Positions 28,452 to 39,154 are shown, counted from the first letter of the stretch. The stretch is DNA of 64,000 bases from an uncultured Bacilli bacterium (GCA_947626095.1 CANQQV010000004.1:32001-96000), one strand, 5' to 3'. Notes: a model not told the origin generated them from the letters alone. Translations and numbers: made by a program.

Positions 28452-28509
28452 AAAATTTGCCAAATATTAGAATTTAAGCTAAAATAAAAAACAACTTAGG
28501 GGGCTTACT

Positions 28510-30420
28510 ATGGAAAAACAAGATTTGATAAATTTAAAGAATCAAATAGATAAACTTTCAGACAAAGAAAAAAAACTAAGAGATTTATACTTAAGACAAT
28601 TAGCTACCGGAGAATTACAAGGCCCACCAGTTGGATATCCTAGCCTTGATAAAATATGGTTAAAATGGTATAACGAAGAACAAATATCATTCCAAGTACC
28701 TAAAAAAAAGATTTATGATGTAGTTTACGATAGTAACAAAGAACACTTAGATGAAATTGCTTTAGAATACTATGGCAAAAATATAACTTATCGCGAATTA
28801 TTTACTAACATAGATCGTTTAGCTGCTGCCTTTAAAGCTAATGGTGTTAAAAAAGGTGAGATTGTAACAGTTGGTATGTTAACAACACCTGAATCATTAT
28901 ATGTAATGTTAGCTTTAAACAAAATTGGTGCAATTTCAAGTATGATTGATCCAAGAAGTAATGTTGAAGGATTGCATAAATATTTAACCGACAATGGTTC
29001 AAATATAGTTATTATTACCGACTTATTTGGTGGTAAATTCAAAAAAGCATGTGAGGGGACTAAAACTACTAAGATAATTTCTACATCTTTATTAGATTCA
29101 GTTAAGAATTGGCCACTAAATAGTGAGAGATTAATAAAACTTTACGAAAAACTTAATATCACTAAAAAAGTTGATAATAGTTTTACCACTCGTTATACAG
29201 ATTTCGTTGCTAGTGGCAAAGATTATCACGGAAAACTTGATAGTGAATACATTGAAGATAGCCCAGCATTAATTGTTCACAGTGGCGGAACTACTGGATT
29301 TCCTAAAGCTGTAGTGATGAGTGATAAAGCAGTATTATCTTCAGTATATCAAGGAATAAATTCTGGAATAAAATTCAAACGTGGTGAAACTTGGTTAGGA
29401 ATCATGCCATTATTTATTATCTATGGTGCAAGTACAGGAACATTACTTCCATTAATTAGAGGAATAACTATTAATCTTGTTCCATTATTTGATCCTAAAA
29501 AATTACCAAAACTTCTTATAAAGAAAAAACCAATTCATATGACATTAGCACCATCTCATTTTGAAAACCTAATATATAGTAAAAAACTAGCTAATGAAGA
29601 CTTATCATATATTGTCGCTCCAACTGTTGGTGGCGATTCAATGGATACTAAATTAGAAGAAAAATCAAATGAATGGTTAAGAAAACATGGTTGTATATAC
29701 AAAGTTGCTAAAGGATATGGTTCATCAGAAACATGTTCAGGCGTAACTGTTAACGTTTCTAACGAATGTAATAAAATCGGTAGTGTTGGAATTCCGTTAC
29801 CTCTAACTACAGTTGCTATTTTTAACCCAGATTCCGAAGAAGAATTAACTTATGGAGAAATTGGTGAAGTATGCGTCCAAGGTCCAACAGCAATGAGTGA
29901 ATACCTTAATAGTCCTAAAGAAACTGAACAAGTATTAAAAACTCATTCTGATGGTAAAACATGGGTTCATACCGGTGATTTAGGATACATTACTAAGGAT
30001 GGATTTATCTACATAACAGACCGAATCAAAAGAATGATTATTAATTATGGAGGATTCAAAATCCTACCATCATATGTTGAATCTATTTTAAACAATTTCC
30101 CTGCAATAGAAAAAAGTGTTGTTATCGGTGTTAAAGATGAATTGCATGCTCAAGGTGAAGTTCCTGTAGCTTGTATCACTCTAAAAGATCCGTCAGCTAA
30201 ATTATCTATAGAGGAAATTAAAAAATATTGTAAGCAATATATTAAAGATGAACATCAAATTCCAATTGATTTTGTTATCTTAGATGAAATTCCTTATATT
30301 CCAACTAATGGAAAAATAGATATTAAAGAATTAAAAAGAATAGTTAATGAATCACAACATAAAGAGCAACCAGAAAAAAAATTATATCAAAAGGTTATGA
30401 AAAAGGTATTACATAAGTAA
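28510..30420 (+). CDS. Long-chain acyl-CoA synthetase-like adenylate-forming enzyme with N- and C-terminal extensions
   Basis: HSGGTTGFPK, GYGSSE, HTGDLG, DRIKRMI, NGKID motifs. Confidence 0.9.
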   Translation: MEKQDLINLKNQIDKLSDKEKKLRDLYLRQLATGELQGPPVGYPSLDKIWLKWYNEEQISFQVPKKKIYDVVYDSNKEHLDEIALEYYGKNITYRELFTNIDRLAAAFKANGVKKGEIVTVGMLTTPESLYVMLALNKIGAISSMIDPRSNVEGLHKYLTDNGSNIVIITDLFGGKFKKACEGTKTTKIISTSLLDSVKNWPLNSERLIKLYEKLNITKKVDNSFTTRYTDFVASGKDYHGKLDSEYIEDSPALIVHSGGTTGFPKAVVMSDKAVLSSVYQGINSGIKFKRGETWLGIMPLFIIYGASTGTLLPLIRGITINLVPLFDPKKLPKLLIKKKPIHMTLAPSHFENLIYSKKLANEDLSYIVAPTVGGDSMDTKLEEKSNEWLRKHGCIYKVAKGYGSSETCSGVTVNVSNECNKIGSVGIPLPLTTVAIFNPDSEEELTYGEIGEVCVQGPTAMSEYLNSPKETEQVLKTHSDGKTWVHTGDLGYITKDGFIYITDRIKRMIINYGGFKILPSYVESILNNFPAIEKSVVIGVKDELHAQGEVPVACITLKDPSAKLSIEEIKKYCKQYIKDEHQIPIDFVILDEIPYIPTNGKIDIKELKRIVNESQHKEQPEKKLYQKVMKKVLHK

Positions 30421-30430
30421 TACTTTTTTT
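30403..30430 (+). terminator. Intrinsic terminator after acyl-CoA synthetase gene
   Basis: AGGTATTAC-ATAA-GTAATACTT plus T run. Confidence 0.65.
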
Positions 30431-30473
30431 AAATATTATGATATAATATACACATACGATAGGGGTAATTAAT

Positions 30474-32735
30474 ATGATGATAGCAATTAGTTTTGAAATC
30501 TGTTCTTTTTTATTTATTTTTTTAGCATCATGTTTTTATTTTTCTAAAGAAAGAGTCGAATCAAAAGAAAATAAGATATATACAATAATTGTTTTTTGCA
30601 CTTTCTTTGCTTTAATTGTGGAATTTCTTTGCGTGTCATCATCATTTGAAAACCTTAGTACAAACAGTCTTTATATATATATTATTTCTAGATTAATGTT
30701 GATTTCCATCTTTTGGTGGGGTGCTTTCTTTCTTGTTTATTTTTATAATATTACACTTGGTGAAAATAAAAAATTCCCTAAAGGTATCTTTATCTTGTAT
30801 CTTTTAATTATTACAGTAGTATTGTTATTAGCACCATTAGATTTCTATTACGATGGTGAAATGGCCTTTTCATACGGCTTAGCAGTAAACTTATTATACA
30901 TAATAAGTGGTGTTGAACTAATACTTGATGTTATCTTTATTGCAAAGAAATTTAAAAGCATTGATAAGAAAAAAGCTATTCCTCTTGTTTCGTTAATTGT
31001 TCTAATGACTTTATCTATAATTATTAGAACTATTTTCCCAGGCATAAATCTAATAGCAACATCATTTGCTTTAGTTGTCTTTGTCATGTACTTCACCATT
31101 GAAAATCCCGATGTTAAAATGCTTGAACAAGTATCAATCGCTAAAGAAAATGCCGAAAAAGCTAATCATGCTAAAACTGACTTCCTATCAAATATGTCCC
31201 ATGAAATAAGAACACCATTAAATGCTATAGTCGGTTTTAGTGAATCTTTAAAAGAGGATAAATTACCTGATAGTGCCAAAGAAAAAGTTAATGATATCAT
31301 CATGGCTTCAAATAACTTACTTGAAATTGTAAATGGTATTTTAGATATCTCAAAGATAGAAGCTAATAAATTAGAAATAATTAATAAAGAATATGATATT
31401 AAGCTAATGCTAGATGAACTAGTGGCTTTAACTCAAGCCAGAATAGGGGATAAAGGTTTAGACTTTAGAGTTAATATTGATAAATCAATTCCTCGTATTT
31501 TATATGGTGATTCGTCAAGATTAAAACAAATATATTTAAATATTTTAACAAATGCGGTTAAGTATACTAAAGAAGGCTTTATTGAATTTACCGTTTCTAC
31601 CGTTATTAAAGAAAATGTTTGTCGTTTAATTGTCTCTGTTGAAGATAGTGGAATTGGTATTAAAAATGAAAATATTGATAAAATATTTTCTAAATTTGAA
31701 AGATTGGATGTTGAAAAACAACAGACAATTGAAGGAACAGGATTGGGCCTTGCTATCACCAAAAAACTAGTTGATCTAATGCATGGTAAAATAGTAGTTC
31801 AATCAGTATATGGTAGTGGTTCCAAATTTACCGTTTCTATAGATCAAAGAATTATCGCTGTAGATCCTCCTAAACAAAAAGAAACAATTCTGTCTGACAG
31901 TAAGTTGATTAATGCTGAAGGAGCTCGTTTATTAATTGTCGATGATAATGAATTAAATATTAAAGTTGCTATTACTTTACTAAAAAAATACAATTTTAAT
32001 ATTGATTCATGTACTAGTGGTGGATTGTGTCTTGAAAAGATTAATAAAGGTGAACAATATGATATGATTCTTCTAGATGATATGATGCCTAAATTAAGTG
32101 GTAAAGAAACCTTAGAAAGATTAAAACAAATTAAAGGATTTAATACTCCTGTAATTGCTTTAACAGCTAATGCTATATCTGGTATGAAAGAAGAATACTT
32201 AGGTTTAGGTTTTGATGATTATTTAGCTAAACCAATCGAAAAACTAGAACTTGAAAGAGTTATAAGACAATTCTTAAACAAGAAAAATAGTAATTCAACT
32301 AATACAACTTTAAAAAACAATATTTCATCCATTGTTAATACCAAAATAATTGAAATTAGTAGTGATACAGCTTCTAAAAAAATTCTCATTGTCAATGATG
32401 ATAAAGAAATAACCAACAAATTAGAAAAAATCTTTATAACTAATGACTATTCTGTAATAACCCTAAATAGCGGAGTAAGTGCTATTGAAAATGTCATTGA
32501 TAACAAATACGATTTAATGATCATTTCAAATAAATTACAAGATATCGATGCCATTGAATTTATGGAAAATGTAAACTCTATCGAAGGTTTTAATATTCCA
32601 GTTGTCCTACTTAAATCTAAAAAAGATAAAGTAGATAAAGAAACTATATTAAAACAAGGATTTAGTGCCTACTTAAATAATGAAGCCGATGAAGAAACTA
32701 TAATTAATATTATTGAAAAAATATTGAATAAATAA
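30474..32735 (+). CDS. Hybrid sensor histidine kinase (~7 TM - HisKA - HATPase - REC - pseudo-REC)
   Basis: FLSNMSHEIRTPLN, NAVKYT, DSGIG, GTGLGL; REC with LLDDMMP and KP; second degenerate REC. Confidence 0.93.
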   Translation: MMIAISFEICSFLFIFLASCFYFSKERVESKENKIYTIIVFCTFFALIVEFLCVSSSFENLSTNSLYIYIISRLMLISIFWWGAFFLVYFYNITLGENKKFPKGIFILYLLIITVVLLLAPLDFYYDGEMAFSYGLAVNLLYIISGVELILDVIFIAKKFKSIDKKKAIPLVSLIVLMTLSIIIRTIFPGINLIATSFALVVFVMYFTIENPDVKMLEQVSIAKENAEKANHAKTDFLSNMSHEIRTPLNAIVGFSESLKEDKLPDSAKEKVNDIIMASNNLLEIVNGILDISKIEANKLEIINKEYDIKLMLDELVALTQARIGDKGLDFRVNIDKSIPRILYGDSSRLKQIYLNILTNAVKYTKEGFIEFTVSTVIKENVCRLIVSVEDSGIGIKNENIDKIFSKFERLDVEKQQTIEGTGLGLAITKKLVDLMHGKIVVQSVYGSGSKFTVSIDQRIIAVDPPKQKETILSDSKLINAEGARLLIVDDNELNIKVAITLLKKYNFNIDSCTSGGLCLEKINKGEQYDMILLDDMMPKLSGKETLERLKQIKGFNTPVIALTANAISGMKEEYLGLGFDDYLAKPIEKLELERVIRQFLNKKNSNSTNTTLKNNISSIVNTKIIEISSDTASKKILIVNDDKEITNKLEKIFITNDYSVITLNSGVSAIENVIDNKYDLMIISNKLQDIDAIEFMENVNSIEGFNIPVVLLKSKKDKVDKETILKQGFSAYLNNEADEETIINIIEKILNK

Positions 32736-32775
32736 ATATATTGTAATAAAATTAAGATAGGATATGGTGGTAAAT

Positions 32776-33549
32776 ATGAAAGATATCAGTTATTTAAAAG
32801 AACATAATGTTGATGTCAATAGTAGTCTAGAACTATTTGGTGATATAGATACATATAATGAAACCCTAATTGAATTTAAAAATGGTCTTGATGGTAAGTT
32901 AGATCAAATTGATAAATTCTTAAAAGATCAAGATATGCCAAATTATGCCATTTATGTTCATTCATTAAAGAGTGATTGTAAATACTTCGGCTTTCTTAAA
33001 CTAGCTGAAATAGCATATGAACATGAAATGAAAAGTAAAGCCAATGACTATGCCTATGTTAAAGAAAGCTATCCATCTTTATTAGAAGAAGCTGCAAATG
33101 TTAAGAAAATTGTTAATGAATACTTAGGTGGAACTGAATCAATATATCAAGATAAAGAAGAATCAAGTAAAGACGTTATCTTAGTTGCTGATGATTCAAA
33201 AGTAATAAGAATATTTGTTAAAAAGATTTTTAATGAAGAATATGAACTTGCCTTTGCTAAAGATGGGGAAGAAACCTTAAATATCATCAAATCTCATGAA
33301 AACGATGACCATCTTAAAGCTATTTTACTTGATTTAAATATGCCTAAAGTAGACGGTTTTGCAGTCTTAGATTATATGAAAGAAAATAATCTATTAAGTA
33401 AGATGCCTGTTACCATTGTAAGTGGTGATTCATCAAGCGAAGCTATTAATAAAGCTTTTACATATGATATTGTTGATATGTTAAATAAACCATTTAGTGA
33501 AGCTAAAATAAAAGAAGTAGTTGAAAAAACAATAAATAAAGTAAGCTAG
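32776..33549 (+). CDS. Hpt-REC phosphorelay protein without output domain
   Basis: VHSLKS Hpt motif; ILVADDS, LLDLNMPKVDGF, KPF receiver. Confidence 0.88.
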   Translation: MKDISYLKEHNVDVNSSLELFGDIDTYNETLIEFKNGLDGKLDQIDKFLKDQDMPNYAIYVHSLKSDCKYFGFLKLAEIAYEHEMKSKANDYAYVKESYPSLLEEAANVKKIVNEYLGGTESIYQDKEESSKDVILVADDSKVIRIFVKKIFNEEYELAFAKDGEETLNIIKSHENDDHLKAILLDLNMPKVDGFAVLDYMKENNLLSKMPVTIVSGDSSSEAINKAFTYDIVDMLNKPFSEAKIKEVVEKTINKVS

Positions 33550-33627
33550 TTTATCTAGCTTTTTTTTGGAAAAAATTGCTGAAAAACGCATTTAATGTTA
33601 AAATAAGGCAAGTAATGGGGGATACAT

Positions 33628-34617
33628 ATGTCTACAAATGATTTTGAATATAAAAGTTTTATTGCCAAACAAAAAATGACTTTAAATGAAATAACTGAAT
33701 ATTATTTGTCTTTAAGAAAATATGAACATGAGCAAGGAATAGCATTAACAGATCCAAAATATCGTGATAAAATTCACTTTATTTTGTATAGTTTAATAAA
33801 ACTAAGCCGTATTTTATCTGGTGAAAAAATTATAATTGTTAACGATAAACATCACAAAACATCTAATCCAACAATTTTTGCCTCAACTCATGTCGGCGGT
33901 GACGATGTTCAAATAGCATTTGAAGCAATTAAAGAACGCGCTTATTTATTCTTAGGTGACCCTAACGATATCTACCAAAGAATCGAAGGGTTGTTGCTAC
34001 ATTTAAATGGTGTCATATGCTTAGAAACTAGAGATAAAGAAGATCGTCAAATCGCCTATAAACGTGCAATTGAACTACTTAAAATGAAAAAGAACTTATT
34101 AATTTTTCCCGAAGGTGCCTGGAATGTTTCAGCAAATTTACCTGTTATGAAATTATTCAATGGTACAACTCGTATGGCCCTTGAAACGGGTGCCGAGATT
34201 GTTCCAATGGCTTTAGAGCAATATGATAAAACTTTCTACGTAAATATTGGCGAAAATTTATCGTTCTCCCAATCTTCAGCAATCACAGTAAACGATTATA
34301 CATCAATTCTTCGTGATGCTCTAGCTACTTTAAAATGGGAAATATGGGAAAAATATGGTCAATGTCATCGTGAAGATATTCCTGAGCATTATGAAGATTC
34401 ATTTGTTACAAGTATAATGAACCGTTCTGATTATGCATACGATGTTAACGATATTTATGAAACATTATATGTTGATAAAAAAATAACTCGTCCTGAAGAT
34501 GTATGGTCTGGCATTTCAGAAATCGAAAAAATCACTAAAGATAACGCCGACGCCGTAGCTTATGCACATCATTTAGTTAAAGAAAGAACATCAGGTATCT
34601 ATAAATATAAATTTTAG
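33628..34617 (+). CDS. PlsC-like lysophospholipid acyltransferase
   Basis: STHVGGDD (HxxxxD), IFPEG, A...GA.IVP. Confidence 0.85.
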   Translation: MSTNDFEYKSFIAKQKMTLNEITEYYLSLRKYEHEQGIALTDPKYRDKIHFILYSLIKLSRILSGEKIIIVNDKHHKTSNPTIFASTHVGGDDVQIAFEAIKERAYLFLGDPNDIYQRIEGLLLHLNGVICLETRDKEDRQIAYKRAIELLKMKKNLLIFPEGAWNVSANLPVMKLFNGTTRMALETGAEIVPMALEQYDKTFYVNIGENLSFSQSSAITVNDYTSILRDALATLKWEIWEKYGQCHREDIPEHYEDSFVTSIMNRSDYAYDVNDIYETLYVDKKITRPEDVWSGISEIEKITKDNADAVAYAHHLVKERTSGIYKYKF

Positions 34618-34689
34618 AACATTTCTTATGTTCTTTTTAATTGAAAAAAAAAACTATTAGTGATAACCTTATAATAGAGGTGAAATGCA

Positions 34690-36591
34690 ATGAGCGATAT
34701 CCTATTAACCTTTGCATCACTAGCAATAACAATAGTTCTCATTACAATTTTTATTGTTAAAAAGAGTAGTAACAATATCGAAACAAAAATTTACATTCGT
34801 ATGCTAATACTAAATGTAATATTTTGCCTAACTTGTATTGCAACATTTTATATTGCAAAGTTAAATAAAGATGTTTTTTTAATCGCAATCTTTCAAAAAA
34901 CATTTATGGTTGAATTGATATTTTTAACTATTTGCATGCTCATATACAATATTTATTTATTAAAAATTAAAGAAAATACCAAAAAAATATTTTCTTATGC
35001 CTTATTTTTATTTGGAACATTTATCGCAGTTGCTACATATATTGCTCCATTGACAGTTATAAATACCAAAGATCTTTTAGATGGATATGGCGTATCCTAC
35101 GATATTGTATATACAGCAATCATTATTCTCTTTTTAATAATCGTTTTTACTTGTATCAAACGAATAATTGAAGAAAAAAAGCTAATAAAAAATATTCCAT
35201 CATTTGTTTTAATAACTTTATTTGTAATAGGCTTTTTCATTAGAGAAATGTTCCCATCTGTTATGTTTGAATGTTTCTTCTATTCATATGTTCTTCTAAT
35301 TATGTATTTCACCATTGAAAATCCTGATATAAAAATGCTCGAACAAATATCTTTAGCTAAAGATCAGGCCGAAAAAGCAAACGCAGCAAAAACTGACTTT
35401 TTATCAAGCATGTCTCATGAAATAAGAACTCCATTAAATGCTATAGTTGGTTTTAGTGAAGCGATTAAAGAAGAAGATACATTAGAAGCTGCTAAGCAAG
35501 ATGCTAGCGATATCATCCTAGCTTCCCAAAATTTGCTAGAAATAGTTAATGGTATTCTTGATATATCTAAGATCGAAGCAAATAAAATGGAAATTGTTAA
35601 TTCTGAATATAATCTTGCTGAAGAATGCAAGCTCCTAGCAAAATTAGTTAAACCTCGTATTGGTGAGAAACCAATTGAATTAATATCAAATATCGCCAAA
35701 GACATTCCTAAAACTCTATATGGTGATAAATCCAAGATAAGAGAAATATTAAGTAATTTACTTACTAATGCCGTAAAATATACTGAAACTGGGACAATTG
35801 AATTCAATGTAAGTTGTATTAATAAAAATGATGAATGTTCACTTGTTTTTTCAGTCGAAGATACAGGTCGTGGTATTAAACCAGAAAAAATAGATAAATT
35901 ATTTACTAAATTTGAAAGATTAGATGAAGATCGTAATACAACAATTGAAGGAGCAGGATTAGGTCTTGCTATAACTAAAAGTCTAGTTGAAATGATGGGT
36001 GGTAAAATAATTGTTCAATCAGTCTTTGGTAGCGGTTCTAAATTTACTGTTTATTTAAAGCAAAAAATTGTTCCTGAAAAGAGATATCATCTAAACAATG
36101 ATTTTACCAAAGAATCATTAAATCTTTCCGGTAAACGTGTTTTAATCGTTGATGATAATAATTTAAATATTAAAGTAGCTGATCGGTTACTAAAAAAATA
36201 TAATCTTATCGTTGATTCATGTGAGAGTGGTCGTGAATGTCTTGAAAGAATTCAAGAAGGTGAAATATATGATTTAATTCTCATGGATGATATGATGCCT
36301 AAAATGAGTGGTACTGAAACCCTTCACTTATTAAAAGAAATTCCATCTTTTAAAGCAAGAGTAGTCGCCTTAACTGCTAATGCTATAGAAGGTATGAAAG
36401 AAAAATATATTACTGCTGGTTTTGACGATTATCTATCAAAGCCTATGGATAATAAAGAATTAGAACGAGTACTAAGAAAGTTCTTAAACAAAGAATATAA
36501 TAATTCATCTTTTGAACCATTACCAGATGACTTCTACGAAATAAGTGAAACAGCTATTATTAACATTAATAATATTGATAAAGAAAAATAA
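34690..36591 (+). CDS. Hybrid sensor histidine kinase (~7 TM - HisKA - HATPase - REC), paralogue of 30474
   Basis: YFTIENPD, FLSSMSHEIRTPLN, GAGLGL, LMDDMMP. Confidence 0.93.
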   Translation: MSDILLTFASLAITIVLITIFIVKKSSNNIETKIYIRMLILNVIFCLTCIATFYIAKLNKDVFLIAIFQKTFMVELIFLTICMLIYNIYLLKIKENTKKIFSYALFLFGTFIAVATYIAPLTVINTKDLLDGYGVSYDIVYTAIIILFLIIVFTCIKRIIEEKKLIKNIPSFVLITLFVIGFFIREMFPSVMFECFFYSYVLLIMYFTIENPDIKMLEQISLAKDQAEKANAAKTDFLSSMSHEIRTPLNAIVGFSEAIKEEDTLEAAKQDASDIILASQNLLEIVNGILDISKIEANKMEIVNSEYNLAEECKLLAKLVKPRIGEKPIELISNIAKDIPKTLYGDKSKIREILSNLLTNAVKYTETGTIEFNVSCINKNDECSLVFSVEDTGRGIKPEKIDKLFTKFERLDEDRNTTIEGAGLGLAITKSLVEMMGGKIIVQSVFGSGSKFTVYLKQKIVPEKRYHLNNDFTKESLNLSGKRVLIVDDNNLNIKVADRLLKKYNLIVDSCESGRECLERIQEGEIYDLILMDDMMPKMSGTETLHLLKEIPSFKARVVALTANAIEGMKEKYITAGFDDYLSKPMDNKELERVLRKFLNKEYNNSSFEPLPDDFYEISETAIININNIDKEK

Positions 36592-36617
36592 AACATGCTC
36601 GGTAAAAGCATGTTTTT
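36590..36617. terminator. Bidirectional terminator between convergent genes
   Basis: AAAACATGCT...AGCATGTTTTT. Confidence 0.75.
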
Positions 36618-37530
36618 ATATATTCTCCAAATATTTTTTATTTATATATTTGTTAATAAAATCATCTTTAATTTCAATATATTCAATCGATAACATATAA
36701 TAATCATTATTTAGATTATCTTTCGTCTTATTAAATTTATTTTCTAAAATATCTAGCTTTTTGCTGATTTTCTTATAAGTGTTTTTTCCTAATACTTTAT
36801 CAAATTCTTTTTCTAAAATATTATGCGTAAACAAAATATTCTTTTTAAGTAATTCTTGTATTTCAGAATAGTTATATAAAGGTCTGAATAAATTCACTAA
36901 AATATCTAAACCTTCAATTTTATATGTATCCAAATCAATATTTTTAAATTTTTGTAAAATATTATTAAACTTTTTATTTTTAATATTTAATTCTCTTAAT
37001 CTTAATATATTTTTAATTATATCTTCAACGAATAATAAATTAAATATTTTATCAATTGTATAATTATTGTTATCAATAAGACCAGTTTTATAATAATCGT
37101 ATCTAATTTTTATTTTATCAGTTAAAGAATATTTTTTATTTTTATTAAATAAAATTAAATTTAATTCATAAGTTAAATATTCTAATGTTTTAATAAATGA
37201 ATTATCGATTTTTCTAAATAATAACTCGTTTTGAATGTTAATTGTCGGAAAATCATAAGATAAATCTAACCACTTCGTTTTATAATTGTTATTTGTCGGA
37301 TTAATATAATAGTTTAATTTATTAAATGCTCCATGATAGTTAAAATTAGTGCAAGTAATAACCGAATATATATCGTCAATAAAATCATCACCATATTTAA
37401 GAATCATTCCTGTTGTTATTAAATATAAATAGTCGTGCAATTCTTGCGGATAATCTTTTTTATCTAGTAAAGCGTCTAAAGTGAAGGTGACATGATTAAC
37501 TAAAGTATTAATATTTATCTTTTCATTCAT
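36616..37530 (-). CDS. Hypothetical protein (very AT-rich)
   Basis: 304-aa ORF with GGGAGG RBS and TTGCTT-17-TAGTAT promoter. Confidence 0.7.
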   Translation of the reverse strand: MNEKININTLVNHVTFTLDALLDKKDYPQELHDYLYLITTGMILKYGDDFIDDIYSVITCTNFNYHGAFNKLNYYINPTNNNYKTKWLDLSYDFPTINIQNELLFRKIDNSFIKTLEYLTYELNLILFNKNKKYSLTDKIKIRYDYYKTGLIDNNNYTIDKIFNLLFVEDIIKNILRLRELNIKNKKFNNILQKFKNIDLDTYKIEGLDILVNLFRPLYNYSEIQELLKKNILFTHNILEKEFDKVLGKNTYKKISKKLDILENKFNKTKDNLNNDYYMLSIEYIEIKDDFINKYINKKYLENI

Positions 37531-37732: not shown

Positions 37733-39154
37733 ATGGCAGGATGGGATTTTACGGCTGATAGTGATATTCAAAAAAAACTTGCTAAAAATCTAAATGATGG
37801 AGCCGATAATTTTGATACCAGAATAGGAGAAATGTATAGTGAGATAGATTCACTAAGTACACATTGGGTAGGCGAGGATTATGACGCCTTTAAAACAGGG
37901 ACAGAAGGATATAAGACTGCTTTACAAGATTTATCTAACGGAATAAGAATGTTTAGTAAACATTTTGATTCGATAGCAGAAGGTACTGAAGCCTTAGCAA
38001 CAGATTTAATAACTACTATCTTAAATGCAACCAGTGGTGCTTCATCTGCTGGTAGTGGTACTGGTGCAACCGCAAATACTGGTGCAACACCAACTTCTGC
38101 AGGTAATGTCACAGCTGGAGCAAGTGGCAATGAAGAAACAGCCAATCTCGATCCAACAAGTAACGAGGCACCTGTTTCTCAGATATCTGATCCAGATTCA
38201 AATGCGCCAGCAGTAACTGAAAATCCATTATCCGCCGATAATGGCAATTCCGAAAACTCAAATACTGGAGACTCTGCATTAGAAGATGCTTCTTTAGTTG
38301 TTCCTTTAGAAGATTCTAATGCAAGTGCAAATATTGAAGCTCCTGGTTCTGAATATAATATAACAACTGATAAAAAGGATATAAATGTTAATAATATCGC
38401 AAGTGGTAGTAGAGTTGCTTCCGCTTTAGATAATTATTCTGCTGAGTTAGATAATGCTGAATATGCTAAGGTAAATGAAAATATCTTCATGACCATTACA
38501 CCAACCGAAGTCGAAGGTAATAGTTGTTATCTAACTCATGTTGTAGTAAACAATCCTAACCAAATATTTGGTGAACCAGCAAACGGTCAATATGCAAGTG
38601 GCCTTGAAACCGCTACAAGTGCCGCAAAAAGATTAGGAACAAATACAGCCTTAGTTTTAAATGGTAGTCATTTTTCCTATGCTGATGGTAGTGAAGACTT
38701 AAAAGGTGCTAACCACATAGTTATTGTTAATGGTGAAATCAAAACTAATGGTAATGCCGGTGGTATGGAAATATGTTTAGATCGTAACGGTAATTTATTT
38801 AATCCTCCAGCTGGCGCATCAGCTCAAGACTTAATTGATAGAGGTGTAGTTTATACTTTCTCAAGTCACGATTCTCATTTAATAACTGATGGTAATAAAA
38901 CATATGAACACCAAGATGAAGCTTATAATAGTACTGTAATCGGCCAAAAATCAGCTTGTGATTATTATATCTTAACTGGACCAACCTCTAATTTTGGGGC
39001 GGCTGACTATCTTTATGATAAAGGTTGTACATTTGCTAAGAGTATGGACCAAGGTGGAAGTGTATCTCTAGTTTATAATGGTCAATTAATAAATACACCA
39101 ACTGATGATAGTGGTGAAAGAGCAATTGGGGATTTCCTTTGTATAACATCTTAA
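37733..39154 (+). CDS. WXG100-like domain + low-complexity linker + phosphodiester glycosidase (NAGPA-like) domain
   Basis: ~100-aa helical N-domain with central HWVG; C-domain LNGSHF, MDQGGS..L.YNGQLIN.P....ERAIGD. Confidence 0.75.
   Translation: MAGWDFTADSDIQKKLAKNLNDGADNFDTRIGEMYSEIDSLSTHWVGEDYDAFKTGTEGYKTALQDLSNGIRMFSKHFDSIAEGTEALATDLITTILNATSGASSAGSGTGATANTGATPTSAGNVTAGASGNEETANLDPTSNEAPVSQISDPDSNAPAVTENPLSADNGNSENSNTGDSALEDASLVVPLEDSNASANIEAPGSEYNITTDKKDINVNNIASGSRVASALDNYSAELDNAEYAKVNENIFMTITPTEVEGNSCYLTHVVVNNPNQIFGEPANGQYASGLETATSAAKRLGTNTALVLNGSHFSYADGSEDLKGANHIVIVNGEIKTNGNAGGMEICLDRNGNLFNPPAGASAQDLIDRGVVYTFSSHDSHLITDGNKTYEHQDEAYNSTVIGQKSACDYYILTGPTSNFGAADYLYDKGCTFAKSMDQGGSVSLVYNGQLINTPTDDSGERAIGDFLCITS

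Follow-up and report, generated by a model that had tools for sequence, protein, structure and literature searches.

Hypervariable cassettes of an enzyme gene and a 7TM sensor half at a predicted two-kinase phosphorelay locus of Candidatus Coprovivens

The window analyzed here is a 64,000-nucleotide stretch of DNA (contig C4:32001-96000) from an uncultured Bacilli bacterium. It holds a five-gene locus that encodes two hybrid histidine kinases with seven-transmembrane (7TM) sensors (HK1 and HK2), a protein joining a histidine phosphotransfer domain to a receiver (Hpt-REC), an AMP-forming ligase (LIG), and a PlsC-like acyltransferase (AT). The main new result is that each enzyme gene and the adjoining 7TM sensor half of a kinase form one sharply bounded hypervariable cassette. 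A preliminary description of this DNA had proposed that the enzymes make or turn over an acylated signal that is read by the kinases; the coupling between enzyme and sensor is tighter than it supposed, as the two are inherited together as one cassette. The host organism is Candidatus Coprovivens, order RF39, and its 1.6-Mb genome, in 34 contigs, has a completeness of 91%, a contamination of 7.9%, and a G+C content of about 28%. The genus-naming part of PMC8035907 places Candidatus Coprovivens in GTDB order RF39, family CAG-1000.

The genes were found in the order previously described (ligase, kinase 1, Hpt-REC, acyltransferase, kinase 2), at the coordinates given there and all on the + strand. 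The genes, the parts of the kinases, and the two cassettes are as follows (lengths in amino acids, aa).

28510-30420, + strand: LIG, AMP-forming ligase, 636 aa (PF00501, 2.8e-63; PF13193)
30474-32735, + strand: HK1, 7TM hybrid kinase 1, 753 aa (HisKA, HATPase_c and REC; a second REC stretch, weaker)
30474..31100, + strand: HK1 sensor, seven predicted transmembrane helices and no sizeable extracellular domain (transmembrane prediction)
31101..32375, + strand: HK1 core, with the ENPD junction, HisKA (H-box SHEIRTPLN), HATPase_c, and a receiver with acceptor Asp (LLDDMMP) (Pfam, alignment)
32376..32735, + strand: HK1 C-terminal pseudo-receiver (PF00072, 6.9e-13)
32764-33549, + strand: Hpt-REC, 261 aa (Pfam Hpt, borderline, and REC)
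33628-34617, + strand: AT, PlsC-like acyltransferase, 329 aa (PF01553, 1.1e-11)
34690-36591, + strand: HK2, 7TM hybrid kinase 2, 633 aa; 7TM sensor to 35316, ENPD junction at 35317, then HisKA, HATPase_c, and REC (Pfam, alignment)
28520..31096, + strand: cassette 1, ligase gene and HK1 sensor half (sliding nucleotide identity versus G010)
33630..35264, + strand: cassette 2, acyltransferase gene and HK2 sensor half (sliding nucleotide identity versus G005)

Enzyme and sensor in one hypervariable cassette

Protein identity within the cassettes was 20-35%, compared to 65-99% for the kinase cores, Hpt-REC, and flanks. Across 20 Coprovivens species loci, median identity was 26% for LIG, 30% for the HK1 sensor, 27% for AT, and 30% for the HK2 sensor, compared to 76 and 72% for the HK1 and HK2 cores, 67% for Hpt-REC, and 73-76% for the flanks. 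In four independent comparisons, nucleotide identity was about 45% from the start of the enzyme gene (or from about codon 60 of the ligase) to ENPD and then recovered immediately. The right boundary of the cassette was always the invariant YFTIENPD junction.

When the locus was compared to that of genome G010, cassette 1 showed 19-61% nucleotide identity at all positions of the sliding comparison but the first (7%, an alignment gap), and its flanks showed 74-90%. The corresponding proteins were 28% identical for LIG and 34% for the HK1 membrane part, compared to 88% for the HK1 core. Cassette 2 appeared in the same comparison as a block of about 45% identity at 33612-35271, with flanks and cores mostly at about 80-90%. 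In the comparison to the closest species, G005, identity was 41-51% in cassette 2; other aligned parts of the locus were mostly at 80-98%, with dips to 62-79% outside the cassette, for example in the kinase-1 tail. At the protein level, G005 kept LIG (96%) and sensor 1 (89%), while AT (20%) and sensor 2 (26%) had been replaced next to an HK2 core of 88% identity.

The same pattern was seen in other genera. L105 and L113 have cores that are 98% identical and flanks at 90-99%, but their ligases are 41% and their sensors 32% identical; the left boundary in this pair lies inside the ligase gene, at about codon 60. L097 and L100 share cores of 99% identity but differ in enzyme class, with a ligase in one and an acyltransferase in the other. 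Three alleles, A, B, and C, were found in a human-gut lineage in which Hpt and receiver are separate open reading frames. Allele A (ligase, acyltransferase, and sensor A) is stable across ten contigs. Alleles B and C (L202 and L207) lie on backbones that are 98-100% nucleotide-identical over about 10 kb, with ligases at 27% and sensors at 41% identity, and the divergence runs from the ligase start to the junction. Judged from the sequences, L202 and L207 look like an allelic replacement between apparent strains of one species.

Acyltransferase type follows sensor type. Identity between AT alleles was correlated with identity between HK2 sensors (Spearman 0.71, 55 pairs), compared to 0.05 for the HK2 core and -0.13 for Hpt-REC. 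A second data set gave a rho of 0.62, or 0.61 with core and Hpt-REC removed, and a Mantel test over 16 units gave a rho of 0.53 (p 0.0002). The best AT match was also the best sensor match in 10/11 informative units, and it was the best core match in 2/11. Enzyme class also follows sensor type. Four cassettes encode a protein resembling phospholipase C (PLC), and others encode acyltransferases of a HAD-containing form; within each set the sensors are closest to one another, while the cores are closest to those of other loci. Cassette types recur across genera, as seen with L100, whose acyltransferase and sensor are both nearest the G005/G009 type. The L105 ligase is 63% identical to that of the window, and the best match of the L105 sensor is the kinase-1 sensor of G005 (L042), which is of the window's cassette type.

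The preliminary description allowed that ligase and acyltransferase might prove to be unlinked to the kinases in related genomes. Gene neighborhoods instead keep the linkage well beyond the genus. In Coprovivens, an AMP-ligase gene lies directly upstream of HK1 in 19/19 loci with visible upstream sequence. One or two acyltransferase genes follow Hpt-REC in 12 of the 22 loci with visible downstream sequence, and all 11 loci that have HK2 carry an acyltransferase between Hpt-REC and HK2, with two unrelated genes intervening in one and a 967-bp gap in another. Other genera contributed 57 loci (L065-L121), in 22 of which a kinase of the family lies beside Hpt-REC. The upstream gene was visible for 20 of these kinases, and in 16/20 a ligase and/or acyltransferase lies directly upstream. 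The 20 slots hold a ligase (10), a ligase and an acyltransferase (3), an acyltransferase (3, one with an alpha/beta-hydrolase), or a protein of 326-327 aa (4). Three of these last proteins were scanned; two match Zn-dependent phospholipase C below the Pfam cut-off and one has no match. In five genomes with an orphan Hpt-REC beside obg, 8/8 family kinases retrieved have an enzyme gene just before them (a ligase in 7, an acyltransferase in 1), and on metagenome contigs one of the two enzymes lies upstream of 24/28 kinases with a visible upstream gene. Since the flanking genes vary widely between genera, the enzyme-kinase adjacency is more than inherited synteny.

Enzymes, kinases, and relay components

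LIG is an AMP-forming ligase of the ANL superfamily with an N-terminal extension of about 45 aa ahead of its FadD-like start. Residues G260, K266, G404, E407, R505, and K602, in motifs A3, A5, A8, and A10, are invariant in 30 alleles, and by these residues the ligase alleles are catalytically intact. LIG scored far under the cut-offs of all NCBIfam fatty-acid and acyl-CoA ligase models (best 280 bits compared to 476). It was therefore not accepted as a FadD-equivalog long-chain fatty-acid-CoA ligase; the ANL core motifs, including the A10 Lys, are present, but the equivalog cut-off was missed. The nearest PDB chains in a sequence search were luciferase, 4CL, MenE, and FadD (1e-44 to 1e-35), and because the neighbors are spread over these enzymes no substrate was assigned.

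AT is a divergent member of the PlsC superfamily. All 30 family members examined keep H88 and D93 (HX4D) and E162 (FPEG), and the acyltransferase alleles are, by these residues, catalytically intact as well. A search returned 778 homologues at E<=1e-5 with generic names only, and a PDB sequence search gave a single marginal match to PlsC. AT was considered as the housekeeping PlsC, a possibility raised in the preliminary description, and rejected. It scored 41 bits against TIGR00530 (cut-off 103), and two other PF01553 genes in the genome scored 92 and 85 bits compared to 48 for AT. These two genes lie on either side of another AMP-ligase in a cluster on contig C2, at about 115.3-118.1 kb. Because two stronger PF01553 genes flank an AMP-ligase there, this cluster is likelier than AT to be the housekeeping set.

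Several forms of the cassette enzyme were noted elsewhere. The 450-490-aa acyltransferases at L088:6751-8103 and L099:4413-5885, both from other genera, are fusions of a HAD/NT5C-type phosphatase to PlsC (Pfam). L041 (G025) has a 465-aa form whose N-terminal half is without an assigned family, the L100 cassette adds an Abhydrolase_3 esterase, and in L081 and L082 a protein with weak likeness to Zn-phospholipase C occupies the enzyme slot.

Ketoacyl synthase (PF00109), PlsY (PF02660), and DegV/FakB (PF02645) were not found in the 91%-complete genome. On this gene content, acyl chains are probably obtained by scavenging. The acyltransferase-ligase-acyltransferase cluster on C2 may be its sole route from scavenged acids to phospholipid.

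The two kinases were described earlier as close paralogues from YFTIENPD onward with diverged sensors, and alignment agreed: they are near-identical from this junction on, 49% identical overall, and 25% identical over the membrane part and junction. Both have the HisKA H-box His, HATPase_c, and a fused receiver with its acceptor Asp ((L/M)DDMMP). HK1 also has a C-terminal pseudo-receiver which, when aligned to the HK2 receiver, shows Ser for the acceptor Asp, Lys for Thr, and Asn for Lys; its median identity between species is 44%. The best NCBIfam matches of the kinase cores were TorS, BarA, ArcB, and LuxQ, all below cut-offs (LuxQ_Vibrio 287 compared to 1200 bits).

The sensor halves alone matched nothing meaningful in Pfam at E up to 10. 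HK2 residues 1-234 were modeled by AlphaFold2 with 51 diverse sensor sequences, which gave seven transmembrane helices with a pLDDT of 93.5. The model also shows one extracellular beta-hairpin (121-134) and the start of the DHp helix. A Foldseek search of the model against the PDB returned only generic 7TM bundles, namely the transmembrane domains of class C and class B G-protein-coupled receptors (GPCRs), with TM-scores of 0.5-0.6 and 11-15% identity. We read the likeness of the modeled sensor to GPCR bundles as one of topology, not homology.

Second loci with tandem arrays of 2-7 paralogous 7TM kinases were found in L245 (G004:C7), L246 (G013:C18), L247 (G003:C174), and L248 (G006:C6). The array kinases are about 745-825 aa long and mostly have a fused C-terminal Hpt, and a stand-alone receiver of 180-231 aa follows each array. 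Lacking enzyme genes between the kinases, these arrays are receiver-only batteries of the family.

Hpt-REC is the sole Hpt match in the whole genome. It scored 24.0 bits against PF01627 by hmmscan (cut-off 24.6) and 26.1 bits, above the cut-off, in the genome search. In 19 orthologues, residues H66 (HSLKSDCKYFGF), D143, D144, D190, and K242 show no variation. The protein ends in its receiver without a further domain, and the same is true in relatives, including the 180-231-aa receivers that follow the kinase arrays. Hpt-REC was found in 27/27 genomes of the genus and in 130/201 genomes sampled from order RF39 (62/99 genera); no orthologue was seen in 15 sampled genomes from other families of the class. 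The relay domains are shuffled in L195-L208 and L228 (human-gut contigs) and in L160-L163: Hpt and receiver are separate open reading frames (117 and 140 aa) in one lineage, and elsewhere the kinase (765-911 aa) carries Hpt at its C-terminus as a fusion.

The genome has eight receiver matches, four at the locus and four in regulators of 220-246 aa. Each of these four regulators adjoins one of the four other histidine kinases, and only one Hpt was found, which leaves HK1, HK2, and Hpt-REC as the genome's only unpaired two-component parts. The relay had been described as lacking an output, and the five proteins are indeed without a DNA-binding or enzymatic output domain in Pfam and NCBIfam. No Spo0F-like single-domain receiver was found among the eight receiver matches.

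Spo0A had been suggested as a possible target of the relay. A Spo0A-like protein is encoded outside the window, on contig C10:31652-32413 (- strand; genome G000, locus L122), with a Spo0A_C match of 1.1e-32, and it occurs in 21/24 sampled genomes of the genus, mostly as full-length matches. A search with a threshold as loose as E 10 did not identify its N-terminal domain as a receiver. In this protein 'LVVCS' takes the place of the acidic pair; throughout the genus the pair is replaced by Cys-Ser and the Thr is missing, with the acceptor Asp and the Lys retained. Since the metal-binding acidic pair is missing, direct phosphotransfer from Hpt to this protein is disfavored on sequence grounds, and the suggestion of a relay feeding Spo0A is weakened. 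SpoIVA is also present (6.7e-104). With a Spo0A_C protein and SpoIVA both present, sporulation under an atypical master regulator may be encoded in this RF39 genome of 1.6 Mb.

Sites that could mark transcription units are as follows.

28457..28485, + strand: promoter-like site TTGCCA-17-TAAAAT before the ligase gene (consensus scan, 10/12 matches; weak)
33543..33561, + strand: terminator-like hairpin and T-run after Hpt-REC, between the two operons (pattern match only)
36590..36616, no strand assigned: bidirectional terminator-like hairpin after kinase 2, common to the convergent gene 36616-37530 (pattern match)

Promoter-like sites in the region were rarer than in shuffles (56 compared to 81.5 in the consensus scan), so the evidence for the site at 28457..28485 is weak. 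The gaps measure 54 bp between LIG and HK1, 29 bp between HK1 and Hpt-REC, 79 bp between Hpt-REC and AT, and 73 bp between AT and HK2. The preliminary description cautioned that terminators and separate promoters lie between the units; hairpins do follow Hpt-REC and kinase 2, but a pattern scan found none between LIG and HK1, HK1 and Hpt-REC, or AT and HK2. Because hairpins follow only Hpt-REC and HK2, the transcription units are likely LIG-HK1-HptREC and AT-HK2, each opening with an enzyme gene. No other + strand open reading frame of at least 60 aa lies between the locus genes, and thus no gene for a peptide precursor was found there.

The convergent gene at 36616-37530 (- strand), which has its terminator in common with kinase 2, encodes a 304-aa protein without a family match. 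It is found in most Coprovivens loci, including those without kinase 2, and is fast-evolving (26-78% identity), following species divergence and not cassette type. Beyond it, the gene at 37733-39154 (+ strand) encodes a protein that is WXG100-like at its N-terminus and has a phosphodiester-glycosidase (NAGPA) domain. This gene is present in the window and in G010 and absent from the closest species, G005, as a clean insertion or deletion between the 304-aa gene and murG. A second hypervariable gene lies just before murG on the backbones of alleles B and C (L202:7476-8306 compared to L207:7257-8453); the product in one strain is a DUF6273 protein, and that in the other has an N-terminal methylation (pilin-like) motif.

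Candidate explanations for the cassettes

We lean, with modest confidence, toward reading the locus as a two-input His-Asp-His-Asp phosphorelay in which each enzyme and sensor form an inherited input module that reads one hydrophobic ligand. The enzyme and its sensor would recognize the same hydrophobic small molecule. Either the carboxylic-acid substrate of the ligase, or the acylated product or lipid substrate of the acyltransferase, would partition into the bilayer and be read inside the 7TM bundle, setting the balance of kinase and phosphatase activity. Phosphoryl transfer would run from the H-box His to the Asp of the receiver in the same kinase, on to His66 of Hpt-REC, and finally to Asp190, with both kinases converging on the single Hpt-REC. 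Single-domain regulators act by protein contact, and the terminal receiver would likewise act through protein-protein contact on a target outside the locus. Exchange of cassettes by recombination in the conserved flanks would give strains or species different 'dialects' that drive one output; the cassettes would be exchangeable because specificity sits in the cassette while the transmitter is constant. We infer the shared ligand because linkage alone leaves two features unexplained, namely that the enzyme has diverged as much as the sensor and that its class changes with the sensor. Shared specificity would be the simplest account of both.

Several points weigh against this reading. An adjacent enzyme and sensor without homology between alleles can recombine only in the flanks, and therefore co-inheritance is no proof of a functional match. 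Ligase identity showed a Spearman correlation of about 0 with sensor identity (153 and 45 pairs), the ligase-sensor Mantel rho was 0.15 (p 0.044), and best-match concordance was 8/12 for the sensor and 7/12 for the core. The weak correlation can be attributed to the ligase alleles, nearly all of which are unique and saturated; as a result, the case for the ligase cassette is made by coincident boundaries and single cases. A common pathway for ligase and acyltransferase is at most a possibility, as G005 swapped AT and sensor 2 but kept LIG and sensor 1. Four of the 28 metagenome kinases are without an adjacent enzyme, and because some genomes hold arrays of 2-7 family kinases without any enzyme gene, a neighboring enzyme is not obligatory. 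Within-species polymorphism was seen in a related genus and not in the window's own species; a metagenome scan found no conspecific contig, with a best match of 72% identity. Also, a ligase by itself gives an intracellular thioester, not a diffusible signal. Finally, the ligase and acyltransferase labels come from hidden Markov models built from Coprovivens sequences, with a Pfam check on subsets, and the genomes compared are related and hence not independent samples.

Whether the ligand would be self-made and pheromone-like or gut-derived (fatty acids, bile acids, or other acids) appears about evenly balanced from the gene content. The allele structure, which resembles that of agr and comQXP, the several sensors on one Hpt, and an output that is not substrate-specific point to a self-made signal, and the pairs of ligase and HAD-acyltransferase look like a small biosynthetic route. 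A ligase that consumes rather than exports, enzyme classes of the salvage type, and an apparent fatty-acid auxotroph as host point to an external ligand.

A bolder version of the self-made signal is that RF39 has strain-specific, non-peptide 'pherotypes'. The cassette ligase and/or acyltransferase, some of them HAD-fused, would build a private acylated molecule from scavenged acids, the cognate 7TM kinase would read it, and the channels would meet at Hpt-REC, setting the timing of a collective decision, for example sporulation. We put this forward tentatively and consider it doubtful. Of the acyl-signal system first proposed for this locus, the linkage of the enzymes to the kinases and an acyltransferase that is not the housekeeping enzyme are retained, and the Spo0A output has lost ground.

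Another explanation is that only the sensor diversifies, either as the target of a phage, bacteriocin, or host factor or through relaxed constraint, and that the enzyme is an ordinary lipid-salvage paralogue without a part in sensing, carried along since recombination requires the conserved flanks. The cassette is a single physical block without internal homology, ligase and sensor covary weakly, and with an apparent dependence on salvage, ANL ligases and PlsC-type enzymes are to be expected as housekeeping tools. However, the enzyme has diverged as much as the sensor, and its class (ligase, acyltransferase, or PLC-like) switches with sensor type on cores that are 93-99% identical. The better-scoring C2 cluster is the likelier housekeeping set, and the modeled sensor would expose almost nothing outside the membrane beyond its one beta-hairpin. 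The left breakpoint of L105/L113 lies within the ligase, so recombination inside the enzyme is possible, yet the remainder of the gene is allele-specific. The pairing of enzyme and kinase also persists across many genomic contexts. We therefore regard a passenger enzyme as unlikely.

To the same degree, we think it improbable that the enzyme docks on the 7TM domain, with the kinase reading its activity or conformation, or regulating it, and the two co-evolving at an interface. The pairing is tightly one-to-one, acyltransferase and sensor covary, and PlsC-type enzymes are membrane-associated. Since the relay has no other visible output, the enzymes could be what is controlled. On the other hand, unrelated folds (ANL ligase, PlsC, and PLC-like) pair with homologous 7TM domains, for which a conserved interface is harder to propose, and kinase arrays without enzymes exist. 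A complex prediction for the HK2 sensor and AT (score 0.00, mark 0.32) speaks neither for nor against binding.

Coincidence, with the ligase and acyltransferase as unrelated neighbors of a two-kinase relay, could draw on the terminator-like hairpin between Hpt-REC and the AT gene, but it is very improbable given that the adjacency recurs in most loci, in at least dozens of genera and varied contexts, and that each cassette, as bounded, holds an enzyme together with a sensor half.

Related systems and significance

The closest known systems in logic, by analogy, would be comQXP of Bacillus subtilis and agrBDCA of staphylococci, which are polymorphic pheromone loci with a hypervariable block of enzyme and sensor half. 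The locus shares with them this kind of block, a conserved transmitter and flanks, and unrelated alleles on near-identical backbones. It differs in having no gene for a pheromone precursor and no room for one (gaps of 29-79 bp), and in its enzymes, which are an ANL ligase, a PlsC acyltransferase, or a PLC-like protein here and a prenyltransferase or peptidase there. The kinases also differ, being hybrid kinases that would feed an Hpt here and ComP/AgrC-type kinases with a DNA-binding partner there.

The preliminary description compared the locus to the LuxN/CqsS-LuxU circuit of Vibrio. In Vibrio, LuxN, CqsS, and LuxQ converge on LuxU and LuxO, and CqsA-CqsS, like LqsA-LqsS of Legionella, is a synthase-receptor pair. 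The layout fits, with several membrane-embedded hybrid kinases on one Hpt and an enzyme gene beside a receptor gene, but membership by sequence does not, as seen in the LuxQ score. In addition, the Hpt here is fused to a terminal receiver, there is no LuxO-like output, the enzymes belong to other families, and the cassettes are polymorphic.

The likeness to Xanthomonas rpfB/rpfC, also proposed earlier, holds as a layout: a gene of the acyl-CoA ligase type adjoins a multi-transmembrane hybrid kinase that, in rpf, serves a fatty-acid-like signal. The rpf system comprises the ligase RpfB, the hybrid kinase RpfC, the synthase RpfF, and RpfG, and its ligase turns the signal over. Signal turnover, as by RpfB, is by analogy one possible role for LIG. 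In contrast to rpf, the locus has no RpfF-type crotonase or HD-GYP regulator, its Hpt is separate from the kinase, its host belongs to the Bacilli, and its cassettes are polymorphic. Aas and the housekeeping PlsC are of the same two enzyme superfamilies, and LIG and AT have partial NCBIfam matches to Aas; these matches are far below cut-offs, however, and LIG and AT are separate genes that are inherited independently. A full-text literature search found no paper that joins such enzymes to polymorphic sensor kinases or describes the relay, which is no proof of being unpublished; the papers found to name Coprovivens were metagenomic surveys.

RF39, a widespread lineage with small genomes that lives in animal and human guts, is uncultured and has hardly been studied by experiment. 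Exchangeable inputs on a relay that is present in 130/201 sampled genomes of the order suggest strong, recurrent selection on what these cells sense. The cues may be signals specific to kin, or they may be certain lipids or acids of host, dietary, or microbial origin. Alleles that occur naturally on identical backbones (L202/L207, L105/L113, and L097/L100) offer ready-made swaps for studying the ligand specificity of 7TM sensor kinases. Should the shared-ligand reading be true, both of its forms would be novel. One is a non-peptide pherotype system in Bacilli; the other is a modular pairing of a salvage enzyme with a matched membrane sensor in an apparent fatty-acid auxotroph. The former would be an acyl-based counterpart, in Bacilli, of the kin discrimination of agr and comQXP, and it would be present in human-gut strains.

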